Shown: positions 9,302-40,388, counted from the stretch's first letter. The stretch is DNA of 64,000 bases from an uncultured Solirubrobacteraceae bacterium (GCA_963761355.1 CAVXHC010000016.1:2482-66481), one strand, 5' to 3'. Translations and numbers: made by a program. Notes: generated by a model not told the origin, from the letters alone.

Positions 9302-9389
9302 GCTCTGGAAACCCCGCAGGTCACCGCGAAGTTGCGTGGCGGCTCTCGCCCTAGCTCAGGTGAGCGAGCGGCGCTAGCATCACCTGCGC

Positions 9390-9428
9390 GCCGACGTAGC
9401 TCAGCTGGTAGAGCACTTCACTCGTAAT
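9390..9428 (+). other. 5' half of tRNA-Thr(CGT); attL-like end of island 1
   Basis: Identical to 22499-22537, then diverges after the anticodon loop; GAGCACTTCA/TCCAGTGCTC imperfect inverted repeat flanks CTCGTAA. Confidence 0.92.
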
Positions 9429-9523
9429 CCAGTGCTCATCGCCACAGCCGCCGCCCATATCACGCCGGTCAAGAGCGTTTTCAGACGTGGCCAGACGTTC
9501 TCGCACGGTTGCGAACGTCCCGC

Positions 9524-9546
9524 GTGGGCCCACAGGTGGGCCTATG
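9524..9546. repeat. tandem 12-bp-period repeat GTGGGCCCAYRG, putative arm-type site (left)
   Basis: gtgggcccacag-gtgggcctatg; matches 22425-22448. Confidence 0.65.
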
Positions 9547-9711
9547 CGTGAGCCCTTCACTCCTCGGCCCCGGCGCAAGCGAACGGCCGTCCTTCTGCTT
9601 GGCCTTCTGTCCGCCGCCGGGCCCAACATGATGCCGGGTTCAACGTGCGACCCAAAGGGGCCGGGCCAGTCGAGCCTACTGTCGTAGCCCCGGAAATCGG
9701 AGGGACGATTC

Positions 9712-9840
9712 GTGCCCGTAAAGGCAAAACCGAGGCCTCGGAAAGCAGCCGTGAAAAAGAGCGCGGTCAAATCGAAACCGAAGACAGCCGCCAAAGCAGC
9801 AACGAAGCGCACAACGAAACGCGCGGCAAAACGCAAATAG
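9712..9840 (+). CDS. 42-aa Lys/Ala-rich histone-H1-like basic peptide
   Basis: GGAGGG RBS then GTG; MPVKAKPRPRKAAVKKSAVKSKPKTAAKAATKRTTKRAAKRK; followed by a terminator. Confidence 0.75.
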   Translation: MPVKAKPRPRKAAVKKSAVKSKPKTAAKAATKRTTKRAAKRK

Positions 9841-9848
9841 CATCCTGC

Positions 9849-9900
9849 GCAAAGAGACGTCGCCGCAGGCTATCTGGCGGCGTCTCTTTGCCGCTTTTGT
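9849..9900. terminator. intrinsic terminator hairpin
   Basis: GCAAAGAGACGTCGCC/GGCGGCGTCTCTTTGC stem followed by cgcttttgt; lies between convergent genes. Confidence 0.8.
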
Positions 9901-9943
9901 CGGTCCTTCCGTTCGCTCCGGACGGAACCTCCCTACCCCGCGA

Positions 9944-10225
9944 CTACCGCACACGGCCGTCTGAAGGGCCAAGGAAGGCTTCAATGGCCGCCCAGGCGGC
10001 ACCGTGGGTCAACGGACCGAGGCGCAGGGTCCATCCGTCGGCCAACTCCTGGCGGACGGAGGCCTGGAGGTGGGCGATCTCAAGGTGTCGTCGTTGCGCC
10101 TCGGCGCGCTCAAAGCCCGTGGCACCCTGGTAGGTGCCATCGACGCCGTAGCGGCCACCCTCGATTGGCCACACCGACAGCCGGTCGGGAGCGAGCAGGG
10201 GTCCTGTTTCTGCCGGTAGAGCCAC
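9944..10225 (-). CDS. hypothetical protein
   Basis: 93-aa ORF converging on the terminator. Confidence 0.5.
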   Translation of the reverse strand: MALPAETGPLLAPDRLSVWPIEGGRYGVDGTYQGATGFERAEAQRRHLEIAHLQASVRQELADGWTLRLGPLTHGAAWAAIEAFLGPSDGRVR

Positions 10226-10291
10226 AAGCAGCTCATCGGCACGCGGACGCGTTGGAATGAGCGAGAACGGCGCTGTGTCGAACGAAGAGAC

Positions 10292-10338
10292 CAGGGCTGG
10301 GGACCCGGCGGTCGCCGATTCACATCCTGTCTCCCCGA
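10292..10338 (+). other. degenerate 3' fragment of tRNA-Pro(GGG); relic att site
   Basis: CAGGG-CTGGGGA-CCCGG...GGTCGCCGATTCACATCCTGTCTCCCCGA resembles a tRNA-Pro anticodon arm, T arm and acceptor 3' strand. Confidence 0.6.
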
Positions 10339-11056
10339 TGGTGCAACGGGACCGGACTTACGGGCCTTTTGTGCGTTTTGAGGCGGATATAGTCGGACCG
10401 TTGGGGTCCAATTCGGGGGGATGCTGGGGCTTCGTCTCTCCCCAAGTGGGGGATACGGCCTAGGTTGATCCCGCACGCGCTTTGGAGGGCGTACCTTTGC
10501 GAAATCTGAGGCGCGGCCGTGGCAGGGGCGGGAGTGCCGGTGGAATGGCCCGGTGCTCCTGTCCTGCTGCATGAGATCGGCATGCACTTCGAGCAAGCGA
10601 TGAACCACATCGCCAAGGAGGGGAATGATCTTCCCGGGACTCGCGGTTGGGGGCGTCTCCCTAGATAGCTGGCAGGCCGGAGACGCCCCCGGAATCAGCG
10701 AACAGCGAGCAACTTATCGGGCGGCGAGGATGCTTTCCCGTCCGGTCTCGGCGAGATCATGCTCGACGAACGGTGCCCCCACGCCCTGGCAGGCCGGGAC
10801 ACACAACAGCGAATAACGGAGCACATATGCATTTTGAGGTCGTAACCAAGAAGACCACTAACGGCACGCACTACCACGCGCGCATACGTGGCGGCAACAA
10901 CGAGATCATCTTCTCGACCCAGCTCTACACGGCGAAGGAGAGCGCGTGACCGCGGCCACGAGAAACTCCCCACTGGTGGCCACTTAATTCCCCACCCGTC
11001 CGGTTCGGGCTCGACGGTGCGGTGCTCGTGCACCGTCGAGCATCGAAAGGACGCCC

Positions 11057-12550
11057 ATGAAGAGCGGAAGGACGCAGGTGGAGATCATCGCCTTGTATGA
11101 GGAGCTGGGGAGCTATCGCGCGGTGGGTTCGCTCTTGGGCTGCGATCACAAGACGGTCAAGCGCTATGTGCAGGCGGCCGGGGATGCGGGCCAGCTCGCG
11201 CCGGCGTTGGCGCGAGCGCGGGTGACCGACGACTTCTCCGAGCTGATCTCAGAACGCGTGCAGCAGAGCGCAGGGAGGATCACGGCGCGGCGGTTGATGC
11301 GGATCATTCGCACCGCCGGCTATCAGGGCTCTGAGCGCTCGCTGCGCCGTGCGGTCGCCGAGGCGAAGGCGAAGTGGCGCTCAGAGCAGGCGCTCCACGG
11401 ACGGGTCTTTCGGCCATGGGTCTCTGAGCCGGGTGAGTGGATGCTCTGTGACTGGGGCGCGGCGGGCACCGTCCCGACCCCGGCCGGTCCGCGCAAGCTG
11501 TCGTTCTTCTCCTCGGTGTTGGGCTGGTCTCGCTATCGGACGGTGAGCTTCTCCTGCTCAGAGCGCTTCGGCGCGCTCGCGGTCGGCCTCGCGCACAGCT
11601 TCGAGGCGGTCGGCGGCGTTCCGGCGCGGGTGCTGTTCGACAATCCAAAGACGGTCGCCACCGAGCATCTGGCCGGCGCGGCGGTGCTGAACCCCGACCT
11701 GGTCCGCCTGGCGGCCCACTATCGCTTCTCCCCGCGCACGACCGAGCGCCAGGACCCGCAGTCGAAAGGCAAGGTCGAGGCGCTCGTCCGTTTCACGAAG
11801 TCAGACCTCATCCCCTACGAGGGCTTCTCCTCGCTTGATGAGGCAAACCAGGCGGCCGGCGCGTGGTGTGAGGAGGTCAACGGCGAGGTCCACTATGAGA
11901 CTCGCACGCGACCGCTCGAGCGCCTCGGCATCGAGCAGGCGCTATTCCGGGCGCTGCCGGCACAGCGCCCGGCACTGGCCTGCGGTGAAGAGCGCAAGGT
12001 GGATCGCCTAGCGACGGTGCGCTTTCTCTCAGCGCGCTACTCGGTGCCCCATCGCCTGCTCGGCGAGACCGTGCAGGTCACCGCCTCAGACCGCGACGTC
12101 GTGATCATGCACCTGGGCGTCCCGGTCGCCCAGCATCAGCTGCTCGCGCCCGGGGAGGCGTCGATCGCAGACGCCCACTATCCGACGCCGGCGCCGTCGG
12201 GTGTGCGCCCCTTGCGGCCACGCACGCCTTCAGAGCACGCGTTCCTGGCTCTCGGCTCAGAGGCTGAGGACTACCTGCGCAGTGCCGCGGCGGCCGGCAC
12301 CCCCCGCCTTTACGAGCGCTTGGATGAAGCGCTCGTGCTCGCGCGCACGCGTGGAGAGGACCAGACGCGGGCGGCGCTGTCTCGCGCGAGCAGGTTCTCT
12401 CGCTTTGGAAACGGCGATCTCAGCTCGATCGCCGACGGGCTCGGAGGCGTGGCGCCGGCGAGCGTCTCAGAGGCAGCGCCGCTCAAGCTCGAGGGCCTGC
12501 CGAAGGTGGCGGTCCGCCCTCTGAGCGACTACCGCCGGGCGCGGGCATGA
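11057..12550 (+). CDS. istA: IS21 transposase
   Basis: N-terminal HTH; CDWG...FDNPKT...SKGKVE DDE core; Mu-like C-terminus. Confidence 0.95.
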   Translation: MKSGRTQVEIIALYEELGSYRAVGSLLGCDHKTVKRYVQAAGDAGQLAPALARARVTDDFSELISERVQQSAGRITARRLMRIIRTAGYQGSERSLRRAVAEAKAKWRSEQALHGRVFRPWVSEPGEWMLCDWGAAGTVPTPAGPRKLSFFSSVLGWSRYRTVSFSCSERFGALAVGLAHSFEAVGGVPARVLFDNPKTVATEHLAGAAVLNPDLVRLAAHYRFSPRTTERQDPQSKGKVEALVRFTKSDLIPYEGFSSLDEANQAAGAWCEEVNGEVHYETRTRPLERLGIEQALFRALPAQRPALACGEERKVDRLATVRFLSARYSVPHRLLGETVQVTASDRDVVIMHLGVPVAQHQLLAPGEASIADAHYPTPAPSGVRPLRPRTPSEHAFLALGSEAEDYLRSAAAAGTPRLYERLDEALVLARTRGEDQTRAALSRASRFSRFGNGDLSSIADGLGGVAPASVSEAAPLKLEGLPKVAVRPLSDYRRARA

Positions 12551-13299
12551 GCGAGCTTGATCCCGAGCTCGAGGCCGGGCTTCGCCGACTGCGCCTGCGC
12601 GGCATGCGCGAGGTCGCACCCGATCTGTTGCAGACAGCCAAGACCCAGCGCTGGGCGCCGGGGGAACTGCTCGCGACGCTCGTGCGCGAGGAGATCAGAG
12701 CGCGCGAGGCCTCAAACGAGCGCGCCCGCCTGAAGGCCGCCGGGTTCCCTGCCCAGAAGACGCTCGAGGGCTTTGACATCAAGGTTTCAGAGTTGCCGCG
12801 CGCCACGTTCGACTTCCTCGCCTGCCTGGAGTGGCTTGATCGCAAGGAAAATCTCTGCCTGGCCGGCCCGAGTGGCGTCGGCAAGAGCCATCTCGCCCAG
12901 GGTCTCGGGCGCGCCGCGATCGCCACCGGCAAGAGGGTCCGCTTCTTTCAGGCCGACCAGCTGATCGAGGCGCTCTACCGGGGCCTTGCGGACAACACCG
13001 TGGGCAAGCTGATCGAGCGCTTGCTGCGCAACGACTTCGTCGTGATCGATGACCTTGGCTTCACTGCGCTTGATCGCGTCGCCGCAGACCACCTCTTCCG
13101 CTTCATCGCCGCCGCCTATGAGCAGCGCTCGGTAGCGATCACGACCAACGTCGATTTCGAGCGCTGGACCCAATTCCTGCCCGACGCAGCCACGGCGACA
13201 GCGATCCTCGACCGCTTCCTTCATCACTGCCACGTGGTCACGCTTGAAGGCGAGAGCTTCCGCCTTCGTGAGGCGCGCGAGCTGGTCACGCCGGCATGA
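12547..13299 (+). CDS. istB: IS21 helper ATPase
   Basis: GPSGVGKS Walker A; VVIDDLG Walker B; ATGA overlap with istA. Confidence 0.95.
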   Translation: MSELDPELEAGLRRLRLRGMREVAPDLLQTAKTQRWAPGELLATLVREEIRAREASNERARLKAAGFPAQKTLEGFDIKVSELPRATFDFLACLEWLDRKENLCLAGPSGVGKSHLAQGLGRAAIATGKRVRFFQADQLIEALYRGLADNTVGKLIERLLRNDFVVIDDLGFTALDRVAADHLFRFIAAAYEQRSVAITTNVDFERWTQFLPDAATATAILDRFLHHCHVVTLEGESFRLREARELVTPA

Positions 13300-13562
13300 G
13301 AAGGACAAGAGCAGTGATCCGGATCCGCAGATGTCCCGGAGACCCCCCTTGGCGGCGGCGGCGGCGATCTCTGACTCCACTCGCGCTACGCGCTTCGCTC
13401 CGTGAGAGATCGCCGCAACCCCATGGTCGTGGCTCTATAGGGGTGGGGAATTATCTGGCCACCAGTGGGGATTCTTGTTGGCCCTTGACAAGCGCGAAGC
13501 ACGCTTGCGAAATCGTGAAAGCGCAAGCAGCGAGTTCGCAGATCTACGAAGTGACGGAGTAG

Positions 13563-13763
13563 CTATCCGTCGCTGAGTCGGATCAACTCCACCGGCGGTA
13601 TCTCCGCCGCGTGCTTGAGTACACAGTCCCAGCTACAGAAGTGCAGCGTGCGGCCAGCATCCTCCGTGATCGTCAAAAATGACATTCGCGGACGGGTGCT
13701 GACTGTGCGCGTGTGCGCCTCGCACTCCCGCCAGTCGCAGTAGAAGATGCGCTCGATGCTCAT
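13563..13763 (-). CDS. small putative Zn-binding protein
   Basis: YCDWREC...HFCSWDC; abuts the stop of the YegP-like gene. Confidence 0.6.
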   Translation of the reverse strand: MSIERIFYCDWRECEAHTRTVSTRPRMSFLTITEDAGRTLHFCSWDCVLKHAAEIPPVELIRLSDG

Positions 13764-13770
13764 AGAACCC

Positions 13771-13970
13771 TCATGCGGGGTTCGTCAGACCAGCTGCGCC
13801 TCCTGCTCTGCCGGTCCACCCGTGGTAGTACAGGGCGTGGCCCTCGGGAGTTCGCTTGGAGGCGATGTCGGCGGCTGTTTCGCCGGGCTGTAGCTTCGCG
13901 GCTACCTCGCGCCAGCGGTAGAGCGTCTGCCGGCTGACCCGATCACCTCGGCCAACTGATCGCGCGGCAT
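13771..13970 (-). pseudogene. frameshifted HTH DNA-binding protein
   Basis: MPRDQLAEVIG in one frame continues as VSRQTLYRWRE in another; one base missing at ATCGGGTCAGC. Confidence 0.6.
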
Positions 13971-14042
13971 GCCCACCTTGGCGGAGGGTGTGCGAGTGGC
14001 GTGGCGAAGGAAGGGGGCCTTCCCACTGGCCAGCTTGGTGGC

Positions 14043-15089
14043 TCACTGCGCGGCATCCGCGAAAGCCATGCCGCTGCTGATCGCTATGCGGTTCCATGCA
14101 TTGATCGCTGCGATCGCGAGGATGAGATTGGCAAGCTCCTCTTGGACGAACTCGCTGGCGGCGCGCTGATAGACAGCGTCCGGCACGCCGCGATTGCCGA
14201 TCTGCGTGATCGTGTCGGTGAGTTCAAGCGCCGCGCGCTCGCGCCGCGTGAACAGCGGGCTCTCGCGCCAAGCGGCCAGCGCATAGAGGCGTTGCTCGCT
14301 CTCCCCGAGCTGGCGTGCCGCTTGCGCGTGCAGCTCGATGCAGTACGCGCACCCGTTGAGCATTGAAGTCCGGATCTTGACTAGCTCCCGAATTGCTGGG
14401 TCAAACTCGATTGAGCGGTCGAAGCTTGCCATGGCGCGATAGGCGTCACGCGCGGCATCTCGTACGGCCACTCGTGCGGCAGGGTCAAGTCGCGGAGCAG
14501 GATGAATGCTTGCTCTCGTGCCGCGAGCCGCGGGCACGATGATCTCGCCCAACCGTTCCGCCGCGCCCTCGGTGTGCTCGCGCGCCGTGACGGCGGCCGC
14601 GATGGCGTCGCGCTGGTCCTGATTCAGGCGCTTCGGAACGCATTCCAGGTCTAGGTCCGCGAGGGCTCTGGCAGACCAGCGGGCCCGGCTCTCCTCGCCT
14701 CGCGGACCTGCCCAGCGTGTCCATGAAGCGGTGGGGAACACCTCAATGACCTCCGCGGTGCACCCGTCGAGCGCGTCGTACAGCTGGCGGCCATGCTCGA
14801 CCCATTCGTAGTAGCGATTGCCGCGAGCGCGCGCTTGGTCCGGCGTCCACCGGATGCCGCAGACCTCGTTGTTCACCCGCCGCTCGCATTCGCGAGTCTT
14901 CTCGCCATCCGGCGCGTAGCAGCACGGGCTGTCGATCGCCACGACAGCTGGATGCTCTGCCTCGACGACGCCCAGCACCTGATCGCCAGTCAAATGGCCC
15001 TTGATGTCAATGAGCCGCCGTCGGTCGATCAGGGCCGCGTCGAAGCCCTTCCGTTCCCCACCGACGTCAACGCCCAGCCATGTCGTCAC
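14043..15089 (-). CDS. DUF429 (RNase H-like) domain fused to a carboxymuconolactone decarboxylase/AhpD-like domain
   Basis: WLGVDVGG...VAIDSP...RECER...IEVFP...DAIAAA, then ELVKIRTSMLNGCAYCIELH...AAINAWNRI. Confidence 0.85.
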   Translation of the reverse strand: MTTWLGVDVGGERKGFDAALIDRRRLIDIKGHLTGDQVLGVVEAEHPAVVAIDSPCCYAPDGEKTRECERRVNNEVCGIRWTPDQARARGNRYYEWVEHGRQLYDALDGCTAEVIEVFPTASWTRWAGPRGEESRARWSARALADLDLECVPKRLNQDQRDAIAAAVTAREHTEGAAERLGEIIVPAARGTRASIHPAPRLDPAARVAVRDAARDAYRAMASFDRSIEFDPAIRELVKIRTSMLNGCAYCIELHAQAARQLGESEQRLYALAAWRESPLFTRRERAALELTDTITQIGNRGVPDAVYQRAASEFVQEELANLILAIAAINAWNRIAISSGMAFADAAQ

Positions 15090-15175
15090 CGCTGGGATCA
15101 TGCCCGAAAGGGCTGCTGACCGAGCGCCTCATCCCTCGCTGGGGTGCGCGTTGACCTGCTGGCAACCATCGCGGC

Positions 15176-16282
15176 GTGAGCGTCGTGGAGCAGTGGAGGC
15201 TTGGATTTGCGCTGAGCGCCGTCGGGCCTGCCTGGGACCCGACCAAGGACCCGCATATTCCAGGACACACAGTCACGGAACTCTTAGTCCGTGCGGGGCT
15301 GCACGACCGCGAGCAAAGTGCGCTCGCGATCATCTCGGCAAGCCGGGCGGAGCTGCAAGCAGGGTTCGCGGACCTGAAGGCGAGCGGGAGGCGTTATGCG
15401 TGGGAGTGTCGGCCGTTCGCGTCGGCACCGTTCCTTCGAGTGGCGGACGGCGGCTTGGTCTTGCTTGGCCGCCCGTGGATCCTCAGCTGGCTCGGCGAGG
15501 GCTTTCACTACCGGGCGATGCGAGTCGCACAGACCGAGGACGCGAGTCGATCAGAAGGTCGCGCGAACCACGTTCAGAACTTCACGGCCTACACGGGTCA
15601 GGTCTTCGAGCGGTACTGCCTGAAGCTCGCTCAGGAAGCCTTCCGTCCGCCCGCTGTGGTGCTCGGAGAGCAGCAGTACGGGAAGGGGGGTGGTAGCAAG
15701 ACCAGCGACATAGTGGTCAGTTTCGGCCAGGACCTTGTCCTGTTCGAGGCGAATGCACGCCGAGTGGGCGCGGAGGCGCTTGTAACCGGCGATCCCCTCG
15801 AAGCGACCGAGGAGCTAACCAGGCTGCTCGTCAAGAAGATCAATCAACTCGGAACCTGCATAGCAGCCCTGTTATCCGGCAATGCGGCGATACCCGGTGT
15901 TGACGTGGCCAGGGTGAAGCGAATCTGGCCAATAGTCGTATCTCAGGGGCACGTCTGGCAGACGGCAAACCTGTGGACCTATCTCGACACAGCGCGCGAC
16001 GCCGAGAAGTGCAAGTCGCTTGGAGCCGCGAAGGTGCAACCCTTGCAAGTGATGGACGCCCGCGACTTGGAGAAGTTGTTGGCTCTGGCTGCGCAGGGCA
16101 ACGACCTCTCCCGGCTGTTGCGGCGTAAGGTCGGCGGGCCGTATCAACGGCGTGACCTGGCCGTGTGGCTGCATGAGGATCCACGTGCGCCTAGCGACGA
16201 AGCGCGGCTACCCGCGCTAAAGGCGGTCTGGAACGCGATGACGGAAGAAGTACGAGATGTGTTCGGCCCGGATGAGACGTAG
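15176..16282 (+). CDS. hypothetical protein with PD-(D/E)XK-like nuclease motif
   Basis: GQVFERYC...KTSDIVV...LVLFEANARR. Confidence 0.6.
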   Translation: MSVVEQWRLGFALSAVGPAWDPTKDPHIPGHTVTELLVRAGLHDREQSALAIISASRAELQAGFADLKASGRRYAWECRPFASAPFLRVADGGLVLLGRPWILSWLGEGFHYRAMRVAQTEDASRSEGRANHVQNFTAYTGQVFERYCLKLAQEAFRPPAVVLGEQQYGKGGGSKTSDIVVSFGQDLVLFEANARRVGAEALVTGDPLEATEELTRLLVKKINQLGTCIAALLSGNAAIPGVDVARVKRIWPIVVSQGHVWQTANLWTYLDTARDAEKCKSLGAAKVQPLQVMDARDLEKLLALAAQGNDLSRLLRRKVGGPYQRRDLAVWLHEDPRAPSDEARLPALKAVWNAMTEEVRDVFGPDET

Positions 16283-16438
16283 GCCCAGCGTAGGCGCCGT
16301 GCTTTCCACAAACCGCGCCCGTCGAAGGCAGCGTGCGAGCCCAGCGACCCGTCTGACGGGGTACGCCGGGCTCTGCGGCCCGTTCGTGAGAGACTCGGTC
16401 TTTCACCCGCACGAGCCGCATGAGGGGAGCAGATTGGC

Positions 16439-18322
16439 TCAGATGGCGAGAGGGTCGTCGTCCCAGAACAGGGCGTCGGGCGCCGACTCGCCGCCTTTGA
16501 GCCGTGCGCGGACGTCAGAGATGCGGCGAGCCCGGGCTAGGAAGTAATCAACGAGGTCCTTACCGAGGAGTCGCCCCTGTACACACGCTGCGAGCGCTTC
16601 TCCAGCGATGTGTTCGGCGAACGGCGCGACGTTCTCGACGGTCGATAGTGCTAGCGGGCCGCCATGGACGAGTGCGTTCCGCGTACGCAGGCGGCGACGC
16701 TCCAGCCTCTCGCCTCGATCGCGGATCTCGTCCCACCAGGCGAGGGTGGCCTTGCCTGTGGCCGTTTTGTTTTTCAGTTCCAGGAGGGCTCGCTCGCCGT
16801 TGCCGCCCGGCGGGAGCCGGTCGAGTAGCCACGGCGTCTCCGTGAGAACGGCGCGAAGGTCGATCGCTCGGCGTTCTCCCCCCATTGCGAGTGCCAGCGG
16901 CGGATGCCGGAAGATTTCGAGCCAGCGTTCCCGGTTCGGAGAGCCTTCCGGGGCAGCGGAGAACGCGGGGTCGCCCCAGACGGCGGTGAACCCGGTCTGC
17001 ATGATGGTGCGACGAATCTCGTTGTACGCCCACCAGGGAATTAAGTCGGAGCGGACGAACCTCGGTCGTGAGCTGACGCCGGCCCAGCCGCAGATCGCCT
17101 CGACGATCCGGTCAAACAGAACAAGTCGCAGTGGTGCGGGCGATGTCCGGGCGTCCCGGAGCCAACCCAGGAGAGTCGCCGCCGCGTGCACCGCTGGGTC
17201 CCTTACTGGCAGGTGCGCACCGAGTCGCTCGGCTACTTCTTGGAGGCCCTCGCTCGTGCGGTCCTCCGCGACGTCGATCCGCTCTTGCACTGTCGGGCCC
17301 TCGACGACGGGAGGTGCGTACGACCCACCTCCTTCACCGTCCACGAAATATACGTAGCTCTCGTCGAGTCTCCAGACCGTCGGCTCGGCCCCGTAGAGTC
17401 CGCCGAGTGACGCGATGGTCTGCGCGGTGTCGCGTGCGATCCGGACGGCTTGGGACGTGAGCTCCTTCCCGACATCTATTCGCACGTATGCAATGGGACG
17501 ATCCTGTTCGTCGGTTTGCTCGCCGCTCGGCTCGCAAAATTCCTTCAGGTCTTCGCTCATCGCGTCTGGGGGCAGGTTGTGGTGTGGAGCCGGCGCCGCG
17601 AGCGCTGAGCGAAGCCATTCTCCGCGGTAGATACGGACCGAGTCCCCGATGTCGATCCACGCGTCGAGGAGTCGCGCGAAGATGTAGCGCAGCCACACGA
17701 CCACATCAGCGCGGCTGGGTGGCTCCCGGAGCACTGTTTCGGCGGCCGTGAGGCGATCGGCCGCTGGTCGGGGATCTTCTTCCTTCTGTCTGGCTTCGGC
17801 GTCAATCAGCTGCATGCTCAGCATCCCGCGCAAACGGTTTGCGTCGTGACCTATCCACTGACCCAGCGCAAGGAGTTGACGTGCAGCCTGCTCCGCTGGG
17901 CCGGGGTGCGCAGCGGAATGGGTGAGATCACGCCATGTAGCGACCAGCGTCTCGACGTCTTGACAGCCATCTCGAATCGCGGTGACGAGATGCCTCAGGC
18001 GCTGTCGAAGCGCGAAGTCGTGGCGCGTCTCGGCCCTGTTGAGGTGCCCGCGGCACTCTTCGAGCTGATCGCATAGCGCGCTCGATCCCACTGTCTGCTG
18101 CGTCTGCTTGCCCAGTGCATTCAGGGCGCCCGTCACGTCGTCGATCAGCGACGCCCAATTCACTCCTGGCGCGCCGTACCACTGGCGCTCATCCTCCAGC
18201 CAGATCGACAGCTCCTCGACGGCGTCCGGTAGTCGCAGACGCTCGGCGCCCGGCTGTTCTCGCTGTGCGGTCTGCAGCGCGGCTTCAACGCCGCGGATGA
18301 CGTCCTCAGGTTCGGGCGGCAC
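16439..18322 (-). CDS. large protein with C-terminal HEPN motif (ApeA-like)
   Basis: 627 aa; RLRTRNALVHGG contains Rx4H; TAGGAT 6 nt before the GTG. Confidence 0.65.
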   Translation of the reverse strand: MPPEPEDVIRGVEAALQTAQREQPGAERLRLPDAVEELSIWLEDERQWYGAPGVNWASLIDDVTGALNALGKQTQQTVGSSALCDQLEECRGHLNRAETRHDFALRQRLRHLVTAIRDGCQDVETLVATWRDLTHSAAHPGPAEQAARQLLALGQWIGHDANRLRGMLSMQLIDAEARQKEEDPRPAADRLTAAETVLREPPSRADVVVWLRYIFARLLDAWIDIGDSVRIYRGEWLRSALAAPAPHHNLPPDAMSEDLKEFCEPSGEQTDEQDRPIAYVRIDVGKELTSQAVRIARDTAQTIASLGGLYGAEPTVWRLDESYVYFVDGEGGGSYAPPVVEGPTVQERIDVAEDRTSEGLQEVAERLGAHLPVRDPAVHAAATLLGWLRDARTSPAPLRLVLFDRIVEAICGWAGVSSRPRFVRSDLIPWWAYNEIRRTIMQTGFTAVWGDPAFSAAPEGSPNRERWLEIFRHPPLALAMGGERRAIDLRAVLTETPWLLDRLPPGGNGERALLELKNKTATGKATLAWWDEIRDRGERLERRRLRTRNALVHGGPLALSTVENVAPFAEHIAGEALAACVQGRLLGKDLVDYFLARARRISDVRARLKGGESAPDALFWDDDPLAI

Positions 18323-18423
18323 GCTGGGATCCTACGCGCCTCTAGGTCCCCAATAACTCGGCTGGATAGTGCACCGCGGCCGGCTGGAGCCAGCCGCGGG
18401 TTCAACGTGAACACCCAACTCCT

Positions 18424-20991
18424 TCATCTCCGTCTTGTCTGTTTCTCAAATGCTTGAAGCTTGGCGAGGTCCGCCGCAAGCTCTGCGCGTCCGGGCAGGC
18501 TCGTACCAGAGCCGGGCGGAGCGTCGTGGATGAAGGCGGAGCAGCGGGCCATGCCGGCCGTGATCTGCTCGACGAGTTCGGGTGTCACCGTGACGTCCTC
18601 GAGCGCGAGCGTCTTGACCTGGCGCTGGAACCGCTGGACAACTCCTCGGAAAAGCCGCTCCTCTACCGCCCGCTCCCACGTCTTGCGCGCCTGCTCATAG
18701 AAGTTACACACACGGCGCCAGGCCTCATCGAGGTCTGCTGGTGGCTCCTGCTTGTCCCACTCCGCGACCTGCTGGTCGAGGACGCTCACCCGTTGGCGCA
18801 GCTTCAGAGTGGTGAACGGCGGATGGTCGTCGACGCGTCCGACTTCGTTGCCCATTCGCCAGACGCCCTGGACCGATGGCACGATCCCGTTGGCCTCGGC
18901 TTGGTCCGTGAGATCGAGCAGGAAGGGAAGGTCGTGTGTGAACACGATCACCTGACGGTGCTTCGCCTCAGCGACGAGGCGCTCGGCGATATATGCGCGC
19001 CGCGTGTCGTCCAGAGACGACACCGGATCGTCGACGATGATCCCCCCATCCTCCTCGAACATGCCGACCTCCGCGAGGAAGAACGCGAGCGAGAGCGCGC
19101 GCTGCTCCCCCTCGGAGAGGATCTCGGAGACCTGGGGTGCTCCGTGTGCACCCGCCAGACGCAGCCGCACCTGCGTCTTCCCGACGGTCGCATGGGGTTC
19201 TAGGTCAACCGCCAGGTGCTCGCAGTGCAGCCTGCGCACCTCTCCGCGCAGCTCGGCGGCGAGCGTCTCGCTGACCAGCGCTTCTGCGAGCTGGCGCTGT
19301 AGGGAGGTGATGCGGTTGGTGGCAAGGGCGCTATGCGCGTTGCGCAGTGCCGCGATGCGCCGAAGAACGCCGACCCAAGCATCTATCTCCTCAATTCGGG
19401 CCTGCAGCTTCTCCCGTGCGTCGAGCTCACCTAGCTCCACGCGCAGCTCCGCCTCGTGCTTAGGGTCCTGCGCCGCCAGCAACGCTTGAGCGTGCTCGCC
19501 TCGCGCCTTGGCCCATGTCTCGAGACGCTCCGCAGGGTCGTCCAGCAGCGGCGGGAGCTGCGCGCCAGTAGGGTCGCTTCGAAGGTCATTCATACGACGG
19601 CTGACTCCGTCGAGATACCGCCCGACGGAACCTGCCAGCTCCGCGTCTCGCTGTTGAAGGGCCTGCAGGAATTCGGTACGGCAGGCGCGGACGTGCCGGT
19701 CGTCGATCGTGTCCAGTGCCTCGCTGAACGCCTGGCGCGCTCGCGTCGCCTGCTGATTGATTGCGCTCTGCACATGCTTCTGCAAGTGCGCCATTCGTGC
19801 GGCCGCGTCAGCGTCGAGCTGTTGTAGACAGAGTGGGCAGTGGTCGCTCGCACGCGGTGGAAACGTCTCCTGGTCTTGTTCGCTGAACTCGCGTGCGGCG
19901 CGCCACAACCGCTCCCACGGCTCGCTGCCAACGCTGGCGACTGGCAGCGCAGCGAACTCAGCGGTGGCGAGCTCGACGGCCGCCTTGGCCTCGGCGTCGT
20001 CGGTTGCCCTGCTGCGAAGCGTCTCGATCGCTGGCTCGGCCACGCGCGCTGCGAGGTCGCGCAGCTTCTGTGCGAGCGCGAGCGCTTGCGTGGCGTCGCT
20101 TTCTGCGGCCTGCGCGTCGGCGCGTGCCGTCTTCGCTTCGGCGGCGGCGACCACCGCTCGCAGCGCGATCAGGCGTGTCCGCTCAGTCTGCTCCAGCGCG
20201 GCGAAATGTGCCAGCTCCTCAAGATCAGTCCCCGCTGAGAGGCCCTCTATGCGAGCCTTCGCACGCGTGGAGTTAGTCAGCTCGCTGAAAACGGGACATC
20301 CGCCTTCAAGCGCCGCGATCTGCGTCGTGATGTCGTGACGCATGCGGTCCTGGGTGGAGGCAAGACGAGTGAGGACGAGCAGGGCCGACGGCACGTAGGC
20401 GACGGCGTTTTCAGCGTCGACGTACAGCTCGGCGCAGCGGGCATCGAACACGGAGATGGCCTGCAGGCCGAGGTCAGCAGGCTCATTGAGGTTGACCTGT
20501 TGAGCGTGTCGCTCCCCACGGACGAGCAGCTCGACCTTCGCGCTGGGAGGCTCACCCGCCGGCGGACCCGAAAACACGTTGCCCTGCACCTCGGCGTCGC
20601 GATCGACGGTCCGGCAGACCCGCTTGAGGCCCCGTACGTATGTGGTCTTGCCGACGGCGTTCGGTCCGTAGATGAGCGTCAGCCCATTCGGCTCGAACGT
20701 CAGTTCCTGGTTCGCGGCAACGGCCCCGACGCCGCGCATACTGCCGAACCCGACCAACCGCGGGGGCTCCCCCGAGGAGGTCCCTGTGGGCAGGTCGTCG
20801 AGTGCGATCGCCTGCGGCGCTGGCGCCGACTCGCCCTCGGCGAGCGCACTGAACGCCCGCTGCACCATGCACAGGGCGTTGTCGTACTCGTCGCCCACGA
20901 GCTGCGTGTGGGCGACAAGGCGTCGCGCCAGATCCTGTTGCCACAGCGGCTGGGCCGTCAGCCACGTGTAGAGCTCGTCTTGAACGGCCAT
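18424..20991 (-). CDS. SMC/Rad50-type ABC ATPase with zinc hook and putative C-terminal HEPN (RloC-like)
   Basis: GPNAVGKT, CPLC, LSEGEQ, VDDPVSSLD and FTHD motifs, plus ~170 extra residues with RKTWERAVEE and RCSAFIHD. Confidence 0.8.
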   Translation of the reverse strand: MAVQDELYTWLTAQPLWQQDLARRLVAHTQLVGDEYDNALCMVQRAFSALAEGESAPAPQAIALDDLPTGTSSGEPPRLVGFGSMRGVGAVAANQELTFEPNGLTLIYGPNAVGKTTYVRGLKRVCRTVDRDAEVQGNVFSGPPAGEPPSAKVELLVRGERHAQQVNLNEPADLGLQAISVFDARCAELYVDAENAVAYVPSALLVLTRLASTQDRMRHDITTQIAALEGGCPVFSELTNSTRAKARIEGLSAGTDLEELAHFAALEQTERTRLIALRAVVAAAEAKTARADAQAAESDATQALALAQKLRDLAARVAEPAIETLRSRATDDAEAKAAVELATAEFAALPVASVGSEPWERLWRAAREFSEQDQETFPPRASDHCPLCLQQLDADAAARMAHLQKHVQSAINQQATRARQAFSEALDTIDDRHVRACRTEFLQALQQRDAELAGSVGRYLDGVSRRMNDLRSDPTGAQLPPLLDDPAERLETWAKARGEHAQALLAAQDPKHEAELRVELGELDAREKLQARIEEIDAWVGVLRRIAALRNAHSALATNRITSLQRQLAEALVSETLAAELRGEVRRLHCEHLAVDLEPHATVGKTQVRLRLAGAHGAPQVSEILSEGEQRALSLAFFLAEVGMFEEDGGIIVDDPVSSLDDTRRAYIAERLVAEAKHRQVIVFTHDLPFLLDLTDQAEANGIVPSVQGVWRMGNEVGRVDDHPPFTTLKLRQRVSVLDQQVAEWDKQEPPADLDEAWRRVCNFYEQARKTWERAVEERLFRGVVQRFQRQVKTLALEDVTVTPELVEQITAGMARCSAFIHDAPPGSGTSLPGRAELAADLAKLQAFEKQTRRR

Positions 20992-21083
20992 GTCGAGCAA
21001 TGGTGACGCACGGGACGACGTGAGCGCCCGCGCCGCCGACTCAAGCCATAGCACCATCCCAAGCGCCTGGTACACCAGACGAC

Positions 21084-21452
21084 GTGTCCCCCCATGTCGT
21101 CCCGCTCGCCTCCTCCGGCCCGCTCGCGGGCGTGATCGGCGTGCTCGGCTTTCTCGCGGTGGTCGCGTGGGTCGGCTGGCGCTTCGGACCGACGCTGACC
21201 CGCGTCACCGGCTGGTGCTCGTGGTGGGTAGCATGGGCGTGTGGTAGCCAAGGAGGCTATGGCTACTGTGCTGCGTTCCTCGTCCTCGGGACGCTGGCAT
21301 GGGGAGGCGGGACGGTCTGGTATGCCAGGCGTCGCGGGCGCTGGCCGTCGGCACTCTCGGCGAGGCTGTTCGCGCGTCTGCTCGGTAAGCGCAACCCGGT
21401 CACCTACGTCGCGCTCCCCGCCACCGTCATCGTTCAACGCCACCGTCGATAG
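21084..21452 (+). CDS. hypothetical membrane protein
   Basis: Several hydrophobic Trp/Gly-rich helices and a basic tail. Confidence 0.55.
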   Translation: MSPHVVPLASSGPLAGVIGVLGFLAVVAWVGWRFGPTLTRVTGWCSWWVAWACGSQGGYGYCAAFLVLGTLAWGGGTVWYARRRGRWPSALSARLFARLLGKRNPVTYVALPATVIVQRHRR

Positions 21453-21550
21453 CGCCTAGCAACACTCGAGCGCAGCGACTCTCGCCGCGCGCGCGCCATG
21501 CACCTACCGGCGCACCAGCATCCATGTCTCAGCCGTCCTGGCCGTCCGCG

Positions 21551-21640
21551 AAGGCATCCCTGCCGCTCAGCGTCGCTGCGCTCCGCTTCGCTTCGCAGCA
21601 AGGCATCCCTGCCGCTCAGCGTCGCTGCGCTCCGCTTCGC
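21551..21640. repeat. 41-bp perfect tandem direct repeat (period 49)
   Basis: aaggcatccctgccgctcagcgtcgctgcgctccgcttcgc at 21551 and 21600. Confidence 0.9.
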
Positions 21641-21843
21641 AGCACACAGTTGCACCGCGGTGCAGAGCCGCTCTGTTCTGCCCGGGCGCGGACCAGGCGA
21701 GCGTATGGTCTGTAAGGGATTCATGGCTGCTGAGTGGCGAGTCAGCAGCCCGCCTCTGCGACGCCTTCGATGAGTGTGGCGGAAACGTCGATGGGGTGGC
21801 GCGGGAGTGGCGTTCAGCGGCTGGGCGGGCTAACGTATTGAGC

Positions 21844-22074
21844 ATGAGCGGAACGCTGCGTTTGACGATCGTCTATGAGGATGGCGGGGATGGCTGGATC
21901 GTCGCGTCGATCCCGGAGGTCCCCGGCGCACACAGCCAGGGCCACACCCGCGAGGAGGCTCGCGAGAACGTGATCGACGCGCTACAAGGCATCCTCGAGC
22001 TGCGCTTCGGTGAGCACGCGCTCACAGAGCCCGCTTCTGACAGCGAGCCGTTGCAGCTGACGATCGCCGCGTGA
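21844..22074 (+). CDS. hicB: HicB-family antitoxin
   Basis: WIVASIPEVPGAHSQGHTREEARENVIDAL; TAACGT 7 nt before the ATG. Confidence 0.9.
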   Translation: MSGTLRLTIVYEDGGDGWIVASIPEVPGAHSQGHTREEARENVIDALQGILELRFGEHALTEPASDSEPLQLTIAA

Positions 22075-22310
22075 AGCGCCGCGACCTCGAACGCCACTTG
22101 CGCGAGCACGGCGCCAGGCCGCTGCGCGAGGGTGGACGTCACAGTTACTGGGGCTTTGACCCGGAGCGCTCCACCGCCCTGCCTCGCCACCGCGAGATCG
22201 GCTGGCATCTCGCGCGCCAGATCTGCAAACAGCTCGGTCCCGCCACCCACCGGGCCACGCTAAGAGAACAGCGGCATGCCGCTCTGGACCCCGCACCTAC
22301 GGGCGCGTGA
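22071..22310 (+). CDS. hicA: HicA-family mRNA interferase toxin (tail possibly frameshifted)
   Basis: KRRDLERHL...EGGRH...LPRHREI...ICKQLG; GTGA overlap with hicB. Confidence 0.85.
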   Translation: MKRRDLERHLREHGARPLREGGRHSYWGFDPERSTALPRHREIGWHLARQICKQLGPATHRATLREQRHAALDPAPTGA

Positions 22311-22424
22311 TCCGCAGGGACGAGGGCACCCCGCCTATCGACCTCGCTGAGCAGCTGCAGACAGCTAAGGTTCAGGCCATATCGCTGCTTTCAGTCCCGC
22401 CTTCGACCTCCGCGCCAGCGCAGG

Positions 22425-22448
22425 GCGGGCCCATAGGTGGGCCCACGG
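22425..22448. repeat. putative arm-type site of island 1 (right)
   Basis: gcgggcccatag-gtgggcccacgg; same motif as 9524-9546. Confidence 0.65.
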
Positions 22449-22498
22449 TTGCCTGTTGCCCGTGAAGAGTCGAGAAAGGGCCGCTTAGCAGGGCATAC

Positions 22499-22571
22499 GC
22501 CGACGTAGCTCAGCTGGTAGAGCACTTCACTCGTAATGAAGGGGTCCGGGGTTCGAGTCCCCGCGTCGGCT
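22499..22571 (+). tRNA. tRNA-Thr(CGT)
   Basis: Full cloverleaf: GCCGACG/CGTCGGC acceptor, CTTCA-CTCGTAA-TGAAG anticodon arm, CGGGG-TTCGAGT-CCCCG T arm. Confidence 0.97.
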
Positions 22572-22633
22572 CTGGAAAGGCCCAGCAAATCGAGATTTTT
22601 GGCCTTGGGCGTTTTCGCGCCAGGTTTCGAATA

Positions 22634-22674
22634 TGTCCCGAATATGTCCCAAGATGGCGGTAGCTTCGGGACAT
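22634..22674. repeat. integrase arm-type sites, left (TGTCCCGAA, TGTCCCAAG and one inverted copy over the int ATG)
   Basis: atatgtcccgaatatgtcccaag...ttcgggacATG. Confidence 0.75.
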
Positions 22675-23875
22675 GGCCGCACCAGCCCGGCTCCCTCAGA
22701 GCGCCCCCTCAGGGCACGTCTTCCGGGTCGTGCGACAGCGCGGTCCGGTCTGGTATGCGAAGTACCGGCTGCCGGACGGCCGGCAGGTCCAGCGCAAGAT
22801 CGGTCCGGCCTGGTCGGCGCGCACGCGGCCTCCGTCGGGCTACTTCACCAAGCGTCAGGCCGAGGAGTGGCTGCGCGACACCCTGGAGCAGGCGCGGCGG
22901 GGCACGCTGCCCGGCCTCGTTCGCACGGGCGCCACGGTGGCGGACGCGGCGGCCGAGTACCTGCGCTACATCGAGCAGGACCGCGAACGCAAGCCCTCTA
23001 CCGTGGAGGGCTACCGCTGGATCATCGACGCTCAGATCCTGCCTGCGTTCGGAGGCATGGCTCTCGAGCAGGTGACGAGCGAGCACGTCGAGCACTGGCT
23101 GTCCGGGATGGGGCGCAAGGCGAGTACGCGGAGCAAGGCGCTGGTGTTGCTCCGCGGGATCTTCCAGCGCGCGCGCAAGGTGTACGGGCTCACCACCAAC
23201 CCGGCGAGTGACGTCGAGCGCCCGTCGCTGAGCCGCAGCGGTGACATCGAGGTGTTCTCTCCGGAGGAAGTGTGGGCGCTCGCGCGGGCGGCGAGCTCAG
23301 AGCAGGACGCGGCGATCTTCCTGACGGCGGCGTTCACGGGTTTGCGGGCCGGCGAACTGCTTGCGCTGCGCTGGCGCGACGTCGACTTCGCCGGCTCTCT
23401 CGTGCGCGTGAGGGCGAGCTATGCGGGAGGGTCGCTGACGACACCCAAGTCCGGCAAGGTCCGCTCGGTGCCGCTGGCGCCGGAAGTCGCGACAGCGCTT
23501 GCGAAGCTCTCCCAGCGCGAGCCGTTCACCGGCGATGACGAGCTGGTGTTCGCAGGCGCGGCCGGCTCGTTCCTCGACGGCTCGGCGCTGCGTCGCCGCT
23601 ACAAGGCCGCGTTGCAGCGGGCCAAGCTGCGACCGCTGCGCTTCCACGATCTGCGCCACACCTTCGGCACGCGCATGATCGCCAAGGCGGACATCCGCCG
23701 AGTGCAGGAGTGGATGGGCCACGCCGACATCCAGACGACGATGCGCTACCTGCACTATGCGCCCCGCGCGGAGGACGCGCGGCTTGTGGCGGAGGCGTTT
23801 CAGGTTGAGGCTGCCGAACCGTCTGGGAAGCAGAGCGCCGGCGACACGGCGAGCGCGCTTGAGGCCCCGGAGTAA
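22673..23875 (+). CDS. tyrosine recombinase/integrase
   Basis: TGLRAGEL, TPKSGK, FHDLRHT and MGHADIQTTMRYLH catalytic motifs; N-terminal arm-binding region. Confidence 0.97.
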   Translation: MAAPARLPQSAPSGHVFRVVRQRGPVWYAKYRLPDGRQVQRKIGPAWSARTRPPSGYFTKRQAEEWLRDTLEQARRGTLPGLVRTGATVADAAAEYLRYIEQDRERKPSTVEGYRWIIDAQILPAFGGMALEQVTSEHVEHWLSGMGRKASTRSKALVLLRGIFQRARKVYGLTTNPASDVERPSLSRSGDIEVFSPEEVWALARAASSEQDAAIFLTAAFTGLRAGELLALRWRDVDFAGSLVRVRASYAGGSLTTPKSGKVRSVPLAPEVATALAKLSQREPFTGDDELVFAGAAGSFLDGSALRRRYKAALQRAKLRPLRFHDLRHTFGTRMIAKADIRRVQEWMGHADIQTTMRYLHYAPRAEDARLVAEAFQVEAAEPSGKQSAGDTASALEAPE

Positions 23876-25207: not shown

Positions 25208-25456
25208 TCCGCCTGAATCGCGGACTGCCCGCGGGGCCGGGGGGAGCTCGACGGCAGCCGATCGATCCTAGCTGCGAGCGGACCAGTCGAAATGGGCATA
25301 CGGCGACGCGCTAACACCAGAACTGGACGCGGGAATGTCCAGAACTGGGTGGCCGAGGCCACCGTGAGCGTAGACACTTACCGCGTGAGTAGCGTGACAA
25401 ATCAGCGTCTGGCACCGATGTGTGCCACGACGCTCTAGCGGCATGGAGGTGGCGTG

Positions 25457-26626
25457 ATGGGAGGGTTCAAGGCGCTACGGGGCGTAGGTATAGCCGCGTG
25501 TTTGGCTTGCGGTCTGCTCGCGAACGGTGCGATGGCCACGGGACTCAAGTTGTGCGTGCCCGAGAAGCACAACCAGGACATCATGACCCCGAAGGCCAAC
25601 GGGCTATGCGAAGCAAAATACACGTTGACTGAACTGGGAGCCGAAGGTCCGGCGGGCGAAAAAGGCGCGGCGGGCAAAACGGGAGCAACCGGCCGGACCG
25701 GGGCAACCGGACCGACCGGACCAGTCGGAAGCCAAGGCACAGCGGGCGAAAAGGGCGCAACCGGACCAAGCGGCGGAGCAGGCGCAACTGGTTCAGCAGG
25801 AGCAACCGGCGCGACAGGCGCAATCGGTGCACCAGGAGCAACCGGAGGAGCGGGAGTAACCGGCCCAGCAGGAGCGACAGGAGCAGTCGGTGTATCGGGA
25901 GCGACCGTAACAAGCGGCCTCACGTGTCTAATTAATGACGTTAGTAGCGGTACGCTCTGGACAACTCTACGCGCAGCCGTCAACGTCGCGAAAGACGGAG
26001 ACACGCTGGACGTGACGGGCATCTGCGAAGGTAGCGCGGTAATCCACTCCAACCGGTACCTGGTGATCCAGGGTTTGGGCTCGGCCGTCCTCAGCGGCGA
26101 TTCCACTGCCGGGCCGCTCTTGGAGGTCGAAAATAGTGCCTCGCTCACAGTCACCGGTATCACGCTCACCGGCGGCGGCACCAACACGTCATCCGAAGGT
26201 GGCGGGATTCAAAACGAGGGCGCACTTACACTCAATGACTCGACGGTCAAGGGCAATACGGGCGAGCTAGGTGGCGGGATCGGGAACGGCGGCACGCTGA
26301 CACTGAACAATTCGACCGTCAGCGGCAATACCGCCTTCCTCGGTGGAGGGATCAGCAACTCCGGGACGCTCATACTCGACGACTCGACCGTCAGTGGCAA
26401 TACGGCTGAAAAGGGTGGCGGGATCGACAACGGAGTGTTCGAAGGCATCGACGCTGCCTCACTCACGCTGAGCGGATCATCCTCGGTCACCAAAAATAAA
26501 GCGTCTATCGTTGGCAGCGGCGGCGGGATCTACAACCTGGAAAACGACGGAGCCAAAATCATCGAAGAACTCGGATGGAGCGGAACCGTGAGCGAAAACG
26601 AACCGGACAACAGAGTCAACGCGTAG
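25457..26626 (+). CDS. secreted collagen-like protein with right-handed beta-helix
   Basis: Signal peptide; 30 uninterrupted G-X-Y triplets; repeated GGGIxNxGTLTLxxSTVSGN. Confidence 0.9.
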
Positions 26627-40332: not shown

Positions 40333-40388
40333 ACTCGTAATGAAGGGGTCCGGGGTTCGAGTCCCCGCGTCGGCTCTGGAAAGGCCCA
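40333..40388 (+). other. 3' half of tRNA-Thr(CGT) plus 13 bp; attR of island 2
   Basis: Identical to 22529-22584. Confidence 0.93.

Follow-up and report, generated by a model that had tools for sequence, protein, structure and literature searches.

Two neighbouring genes of an RloC type and a HEPN-motif type as separate candidate defence units in a tRNA-Thr island of a Solirubrobacteraceae bacterium

Introduction

Two long open reading frames (ORFs) lie head to tail, with a gap of 101 bp, on the minus strand of a 64,000-nucleotide (nt) stretch of DNA from an uncultured Solirubrobacteraceae bacterium (GCA_963761355.1, CAVXHC010000016.1:2482-66481), the whole of which is called the window here. 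The upstream one, gene A, encodes a Rad50-like ATP-binding cassette (ABC) ATPase with a zinc hook and a C-terminal nuclease-type domain, and the downstream one, gene B, encodes a protein of an unnamed family that carries a HEPN-type R-N-x3-H motif. The question raised by this locus is whether the two are parts of one defence system or separate genes that have become neighbours. A reading made from the sequence alone had proposed a paired module of two ribonucleases (RNases) at a tRNA locus, an RloC-like ATPase followed by an ApeA-like HEPN protein. The analysis presented here favours the other answer: with a probability of roughly 0.7, gene A and gene B are independent candidate defence genes, each a unit of its own, that have become neighbours in a 13-kb tRNA-Thr island. 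Translation confirmed both ORFs on the minus strand and placed the motifs RCSAFIH, CPLC and RNALVH where the sequence-only reading had seen them.

Separate occurrence of gene A and gene B

The distribution of the two genes was compared across 401 genomes of the order Solirubrobacterales. Gene A is present in 16 of these and gene B in 12 (~3%), and both are found in only two, this genome and a second one (G019) in which they lie 115 kb apart. With this genome excluded, chance alone predicts ~0.4 genomes with both genes, and their co-occurrence across the order is at chance level. The individual loci were compared as well. No gene B relative was found in 80 gene A loci, and no neighbour of gene A is conserved in more than 6 of them. 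Conversely, gene A is adjacent to gene B in none of 18 gene B loci; a gene A-like sequence is found in one (L003), where it is partial, ~5 kb downstream and on the opposite strand. Beyond four near-identical loci, these 18 loci have no conserved neighbour either. Because they are separate in other genomes, we consider gene A and gene B to be two stand-alone genes and not a paired system.

The closest relative of gene A (P0023, at locus L099; 94% protein identity) shows where the mobile unit ends. The two loci share 3.2 kb at 93.5% nucleotide identity (blastn; 21591 to 18375 in the window), a cassette that holds gene A and a divergent ORF of 122 amino acids (aa), with gene B outside it. The similarity ends ~50 nt past the gene A stop codon, within a guanine-plus-cytosine (GC)-rich hairpin that is likely a transcription stop. 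For the 69-nt intergenic RNA, a folding energy of -33.5 kcal/mol (z -2.6) was calculated. At L099, the next gene after gene A is a 210-aa MUG113/T5orf172 gene, and a TrwC relaxase lies upstream. Gene A came in on its own, as this 3.2-kb cassette. The proposed paired two-RNase module therefore finds no support: the adjacency is seen only here, each gene stands alone elsewhere, and the gene A cassette ends before gene B.

Two further features of the cassette were recorded. The 122-aa ORF is kept with gene A in the L099 cassette and is not a conserved neighbour across the wider PDC-S06 family. A 41-nt sequence is duplicated exactly at the upstream cassette edge (21551-21591 and 21600-21640, spacing 49 bp), and L099 has a single copy of it.

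Gene A and the RloC family

The open frame of gene A reaches a GTG at 21075 (18424 to 21075, 883 aa), from which residue numbers are counted here. The ATG at 20991, which is also the end coordinate given by the sequence-only reading, is the likely start, because M29 corresponds to the first residue of homologues (~853 to 858 aa) and of the PADLOC model. Pfam AAA_13 matched gene A with 71.4 bits against a cutoff of 36, and SMC_N, AAA_21 and AAA_23 matched more weakly. PDLC04891, the PADLOC model of the candidate single-gene system PDC-S06, matched along its whole length, with residues 29-882 aligned to model positions 1-855 of 858 at E 9.7e-193. Among solved proteins, Rad50, RecF and AriA are closest in sequence, with Rad50 at the top and the matches over the signature and Walker B region; one relative of gene A (P0097) has a match to the Pfam Rad50 zinc hook. 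Members of the family occur in 560 or more species genomes from several phyla.

Conservation was counted in an alignment of 81 sequences, made up of gene A and 80 of its relatives that were drawn from species genomes in many phyla. Walker A residues G137 and K143, zinc-hook residues C413 and C416, S654 of the ABC signature and D682 and D683 of Walker B are present in all 81 sequences, and H714 of the H-loop in 80. In the C-terminal domain, the Arg and His of the nuclease-type triad, R797 and H850, are found in 81/81 and the Glu, E801, in 80/81, and a Ser precedes the His (S846) in 69/81. RloC was defined as a distant PrrC homologue with ABC motifs, a coiled-coil insert bearing a CxxC zinc hook, and a C-proximal Arg-X3-Glu-X36-52-His triad, often with a Ser before the His (PMC2610378). 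The gene A triad, R797-x3-E801-x48-H850, fits this definition in its spacing and in the Ser before the His. An alignment of 23 sequences had given R802 and E806 as the triad Arg and Glu; this assignment was dropped, as the 81-sequence alignment shows R797 and E801 to be the invariant pair.

Part of the motif that the sequence-only reading had seen in the C-terminal domain, RCSAFIH, stands. Its His is the invariant H850, but its Arg, R844, is not the invariant Arg of the family, since position 844 is Lys or Arg in 72/81 sequences. The HEPN domain of PrrC/RloC has also been read as Rx4-6H (Anantharaman et al.), and [K/R]844-x5-H850 of gene A agrees with that reading.

Gene A thus resembles RloC in its ABC motifs, in a long insert with an invariant CxxC, in a C-terminal Arg-x3-Glu-x48-His with a Ser before the His, and in being a stand-alone gene for ~855 aa with no linkage to a restriction-modification (R-M) locus. 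The named examples of RloC are those of Geobacillus kaustophilus and Acinetobacter baylyi (Davidov & Kaufmann 2008; Klaiman et al. 2012, 2014), whereas the host of gene A is a high-GC Solirubrobacterales bacterium and its activity is predicted; the comparison was made with the published definition and the PDC-S06 model. PrrC of E. coli, which is linked to EcoprrI, has the logic of an ABC ATPase with a C-terminal Arg/Glu/His nuclease in common with gene A, and the PADLOC PrrC model gave a weak match over the signature region (E 1e-5). However, PrrC lacks the coiled-coil zinc hook that is predicted for gene A, and it is always found inside a type I R-M locus, whereas annotation of the neighbouring genes in the window showed no hsd genes near gene A. 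The proposal of an RloC-like ATPase is borne out: by every criterion that sequence allows to be applied, together with the full-length PDC-S06 match, gene A is an RloC-family protein.

Gene B and its family

No match to gene B was found in the Pfam, PADLOC, NCBIfam and PHROG libraries, and a search of PDB sequences with the gene B profile (hmmsearch) gave noise only. A word-indexed search returned 19 relatives only, all metagenomic. An exhaustive profile search revealed 833 cluster representatives (clusters at 50% identity) at E<=1e-3, 264 of them at E<=1e-30, and most are 610 to 660 aa long. All 18 gene B loci in species genomes are from Solirubrobacterales or from Thermoleophilia metagenome-assembled genomes, and the family was detected in 2 of the 301 genomes that were sampled from the phylum Actinomycetota.

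Among 55 relatives of gene B (~19 to 43% identity), four residues alone do not vary: W210, W317, R548 and H553. The sole invariant polar residues are therefore R548 and H553 of the RNxxxH motif, and N549, G554, G555, P556, R543 and R546 are conserved at 90% or more. Judged by its residues, R548-N-A-L-V-H553 is a canonical HEPN-type R-N-x3-H signature. The motifs that had been singled out in the two genes are conserved and not chance occurrences, as seen for C413, C416 and H850 (81/81) in gene A and for R548 and H553 in gene B.

The full-length AlphaFold2 model of gene B (predicted local distance difference test score, pLDDT, 86; predicted template modelling score, pTM, 0.71) has a helical, alpha/beta and helical layout, in which the structured parts of the three domains span residues 1-200, 204-334 and 345-618. 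The C domain was also modelled separately (pLDDT 84, pTM 0.81). In the model, the RNxxxH motif is located at the end of helix 523-553, in a helical domain. At the level of secondary structure, this predicted layout resembles that of ApeA, for which cryo-electron microscopy showed a helical N domain (residues 1-198) reported to be alpha-catenin-like, a Mid domain (199-309) and a split HEPN domain (335-583) with catalytic R502 (10.64898/2026.01.26.701840).

Copies of gene B are often broken. Two are interrupted by insertion sequences (IS), a Mutator-family element at L006 (3246-4478) and an IS1595-family element at L018 (6192-7244), splits or frameshifts are found at L007, L016, G001, G310 and G450, and only a remnant is left in G116; the pseudogene fraction of the family is high. 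G116 belongs to the same genus as this genome, and synteny of the island around its gene B fragment was uninformative, with just 278 bp matched at 68%. The neighbours of gene B relatives include IS66, Mutator and DDE transposases, an NB-ARC/TPR STAND protein, an HNH protein, a GajB-like UvrD helicase, a DpdB-like protein and an SMC-like ATPase with HATPase and receiver/TCAD9 genes. Such a sporadic, IS-associated and often broken distribution would be expected of a costly gene with a toxic or defence role, and is no proof of one.

At one of these loci (L016, 1623-5771), a three-gene cluster lies directly upstream of the split gene B homologue. It encodes an SMC/AAA_21-like ATPase, an HATPase_c protein and a receiver/TCAD9/APH-like protein, and resembles "ternary complex" conflict systems.

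Other stand-alone HEPN defence RNases (DARNA/PD-T7-3, AbiF/AbiD and HepT) also have a catalytic Rx4H in a domain made only of helices and follow the logic of abortive infection; none of them is detectably homologous to gene B. HepT and AbiF differ in being much smaller or in having antitoxin partners. An N-terminal HEPN domain led to the rejection of DARNA as a possible relative of gene B. Comparison by hhalign of the gene B C domain with the gene A family revealed no similarity, and the nuclease-type domains of gene A and gene B are for this reason not paralogues.

Interpretation and alternative explanations

The analysis shows which domains and motifs the two genes contain, how well these are conserved, that the genes are distributed independently and where the cassette ends. 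A tRNase activity of gene A, any RNase activity of gene B and a defence role of either are inferred. In gene A, the Rad50-like ABC ATPase with its predicted zinc-hook coiled coil would restrain the C-terminal Arg/Glu/His anticodon nuclease. Phage attack or DNA damage would, by analogy with the RloC proteins that have been characterised, release the nuclease, which would then cut tRNA and bring translation to a stop. Characterised RloCs are activated by DNA breaks and excise the wobble nucleotide, and by the same analogy both properties may be expected of gene A. Gene B is most likely a stand-alone HEPN-type RNase. It would be metal-independent, with N-terminal and middle sensor domains in an ApeA-like layout, and would act as a toxic or abortive-infection effector.

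Several observations weigh against this interpretation. For gene A, the Pfam AAA_13 alignment ends at residue 727, and because of this the C-terminal domain is linked to RloC by motif and spacing only. For gene B, Foldseek searches with the full model and with the C domain against PDB and BFVD gave no HEPN match and no significant match, and hence do not confirm the RNase fold; the best E values against PDB were 0.04 for the full model and 0.86 for the C domain, in a PDB copy that contained no ApeA structure. A Pfam scan of the 55 relatives gave no family match, apart from one faint match of a single relative to HEPN_Swt1 (E 0.033). The alignment by hhalign of the gene B family with actinobacterial ApeA covers 24 columns only (E 0.025, probability 1.9%). 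Finally, the common strand and the 101-bp gap are compatible with read-through co-transcription, which may take place at this locus.

For gene B, we put forward a more specific proposal tentatively, at somewhat less than even odds. Gene B may found an undescribed family of large single-protein HEPN-type RNases, of ~830 clusters and centred on Solirubrobacterales. Such a family would be either a sister of ApeA or distantly analogous to it in structure, would have sensor domains of its own and would work as an autonomous abortive-infection tRNase or mRNase.

It is also conceivable that gene B is not a nuclease at all, and that RNxxxHGGP serves ligand binding or structure in a protein that is borne on mobile DNA and has an unrelated function. 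Fold and profile searches link gene B to no nuclease, and some HEPN-like domains are non-catalytic binders (Anantharaman et al.). We nevertheless consider this explanation unlikely, given that the sole polar residues that stay invariant at ~20% identity are precisely the Arg and His of the canonical R-[N]-x3-H, in a family whose sporadic, pseudogene-rich and IS-adjacent occurrence is typical of toxic or defence genes.

A closer relationship to ApeA was weighed next to this. ApeA is a single-protein HEPN tRNA anticodon nuclease (Gao et al. 2020; Juozapaitis et al. 2026 preprint). Gene B resembles it in encoding a single large protein with R-N-x3-H near the C-terminus, in a predicted helical C domain, and in its sporadic presence in variable regions. 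If gene B were a highly diverged true member of ApeA, it would be a HEPN nuclease of tRNA anticodons that is activated by a ligand and assembles into ring oligomers. The three domains are predicted in the same order and with similar sizes, and RNxxxH lies ~80 residues from the C-terminus. The best hhalign match falls exactly over the catalytic motifs of both families (RTRNALVHGG in gene B, STRNYFIHYD in ApeA), and the highest-ranking Foldseek matches of the whole gene B model, none of them significant, include helical proteins of Vinculin type, which recalls the alpha-catenin-like N domain of ApeA. Nevertheless, the Pfam HEPN_Apea (PF18739) and PADLOC ApeA models gave no match to gene B (E<=1) or to any of its relatives (0/55), while PF18739 finds ApeA in 9/301 Actinomycetota genomes; in the genome of gene B itself, PF18739 found no match. 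Gene B is, moreover, ~100 to 170 aa longer than actinobacterial ApeA and is without the conserved GxWWLP segment with which these start. Together with the hhalign probability of 1.9%, this makes true membership improbable, slightly more so than a function unrelated to nucleases. Judged by its motif and its predicted layout, gene B bears a HEPN motif and is laid out like ApeA, and is not a demonstrable member of that family. The earlier label of an ApeA-like HEPN protein keeps the invariant RNxxxH and the layout in its favour, yet hidden Markov model (HMM), hhalign and Foldseek comparisons all fail to support it.

That gene A and gene B form a local, co-transcribed two-gene system of this lineage only, with gene B as a second effector, a sensor or a regulator, would agree with their common strand, 101-bp gap and island, with the nuclease-type motifs in both and with the multi-pronged defence loci of HEPN proteins and other modules described by Anantharaman et al., but it is very improbable in view of an adjacency unique to this genome, a strong hairpin that closes the gene A cassette before gene B, a different gene downstream of the closest gene A relative and a gene B that starts at a GTG with its own AGGA ribosome-binding site.

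The tRNA-Thr locus and its islands

The proposed tRNA locus was confirmed: a tRNA-Thr(CGT) gene is present, and a repeat of its 5' half bounds the island that holds gene A and gene B (Table 1). The repeat is an exact 40-nt copy (9389-9428 and 22498-22537) that runs through the tRNA-Thr anticodon loop. Duplication of the 5' half of a tRNA gene is less common than that of the 3' half. Besides gene B and gene A, the island contains IS21 istA/istB, a fusion of DUF429 with a carboxymuconolactone decarboxylase (CMD) domain and several ORFs without a family match. It is without an integrase of its own. In the fusion ORF (14043-15101, minus strand), DUF429 spans residues 10-184 and the carboxymuconolactone decarboxylase/AhpD-like CMD domain residues 232-296.

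On the other side, the 3' end of tRNA-Thr (22548-22571) is repeated at 40352-40375, 17.8 kb downstream, and a tyrosine integrase (22673-23875) adjoins the tRNA gene. There is therefore a second island on the 3' side, and tRNA-Thr is flanked by islands on both sides. Inside this second island, a 390-aa ORF with collagen triple-helix repeats is found at 25454-26626 on the plus strand (Pfam Collagen, E 1.7e-11). The GC content of the window is ~72% up to roughly 9 kb and 62 to 69% beyond.

Table 1. Positions of the features discussed in the text, counted from the first nucleotide of the window
Feature	Position	Strand	Remarks
Genomic island 1, 13.1 kb	9389..22537	+	bounded by exact 40-nt direct repeat, tRNA-Thr 5' half
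Gene B, unnamed family	16439..18322	-	627 aa
Gene B helical C domain, residues 340-627	16442-17305	-	AlphaFold model
RRLRTRNALVHGGP (R543-P556), HEPN-type R-N-x3-H motif, gene B	16655..16696	-	end of helix 523-553
Gene B alpha/beta middle domain, residues about 201-339	17306-17722	-	AlphaFold model
Gene B helical N domain, residues 1-200	17723-18322	-	AlphaFold model
GC-rich hairpin ~25 nt past gene A stop	18374..18400	-	cassette end
Gene A cassette, 3.2 kb, 93.5% nucleotide identity with L099 (blastn)	18375..21656	-	gene A and divergent 122-aa ORF
Gene A, RloC-family / PDC-S06 Rad50-like ABC ATPase	18424..20991	-	855 aa from ATG 20991
Gene A C-terminal nuclease-type domain, residues ~730-883	18427..18888	-	carries RloC triad
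RCSAFIH motif, gene A	18526-18546	-	translation
Triad codon H850, gene A	18526-18528	-	
Triad codon E801, gene A	18673-18675	-	
Triad codon R797, gene A	18685-18687	-	
H-loop THD (713-715), gene A	18931-18939	-	
ABC signature LSEGEQ (653-658) and Walker B/D-loop IIVDDPVSSLD (679-689), gene A	19009..19119	-	alignment
CPLC zinc-hook motif (C413-C416), gene A	19828..19839	-	between Walker A and ABC signature
Walker A / P-loop GPNAVGKT (G137-T144), gene A	20644..20667	-	translation
122-aa ORF, divergent from gene A	21084-21452	+	without family match
tRNA-Thr(CGT)	22499-22572		

Significance

Gene A is an ordinary RloC/PDC-S06 member, and of the two genes only gene B is new. Gene A adds little, although the conservation counted across the family settles which Arg and Glu belong to the triad in its clade. 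That two nuclease-like genes lie next to each other in an island did not signal a system here, and the cassette boundary shows gene A moving in alone. Gene B is the one worth following, as a family of 620-aa proteins that are predicted to fold well and that is absent from all family libraries. If gene B is an RNase effector, single-protein HEPN defences would extend into soil Actinomycetota, with new sensor domains.

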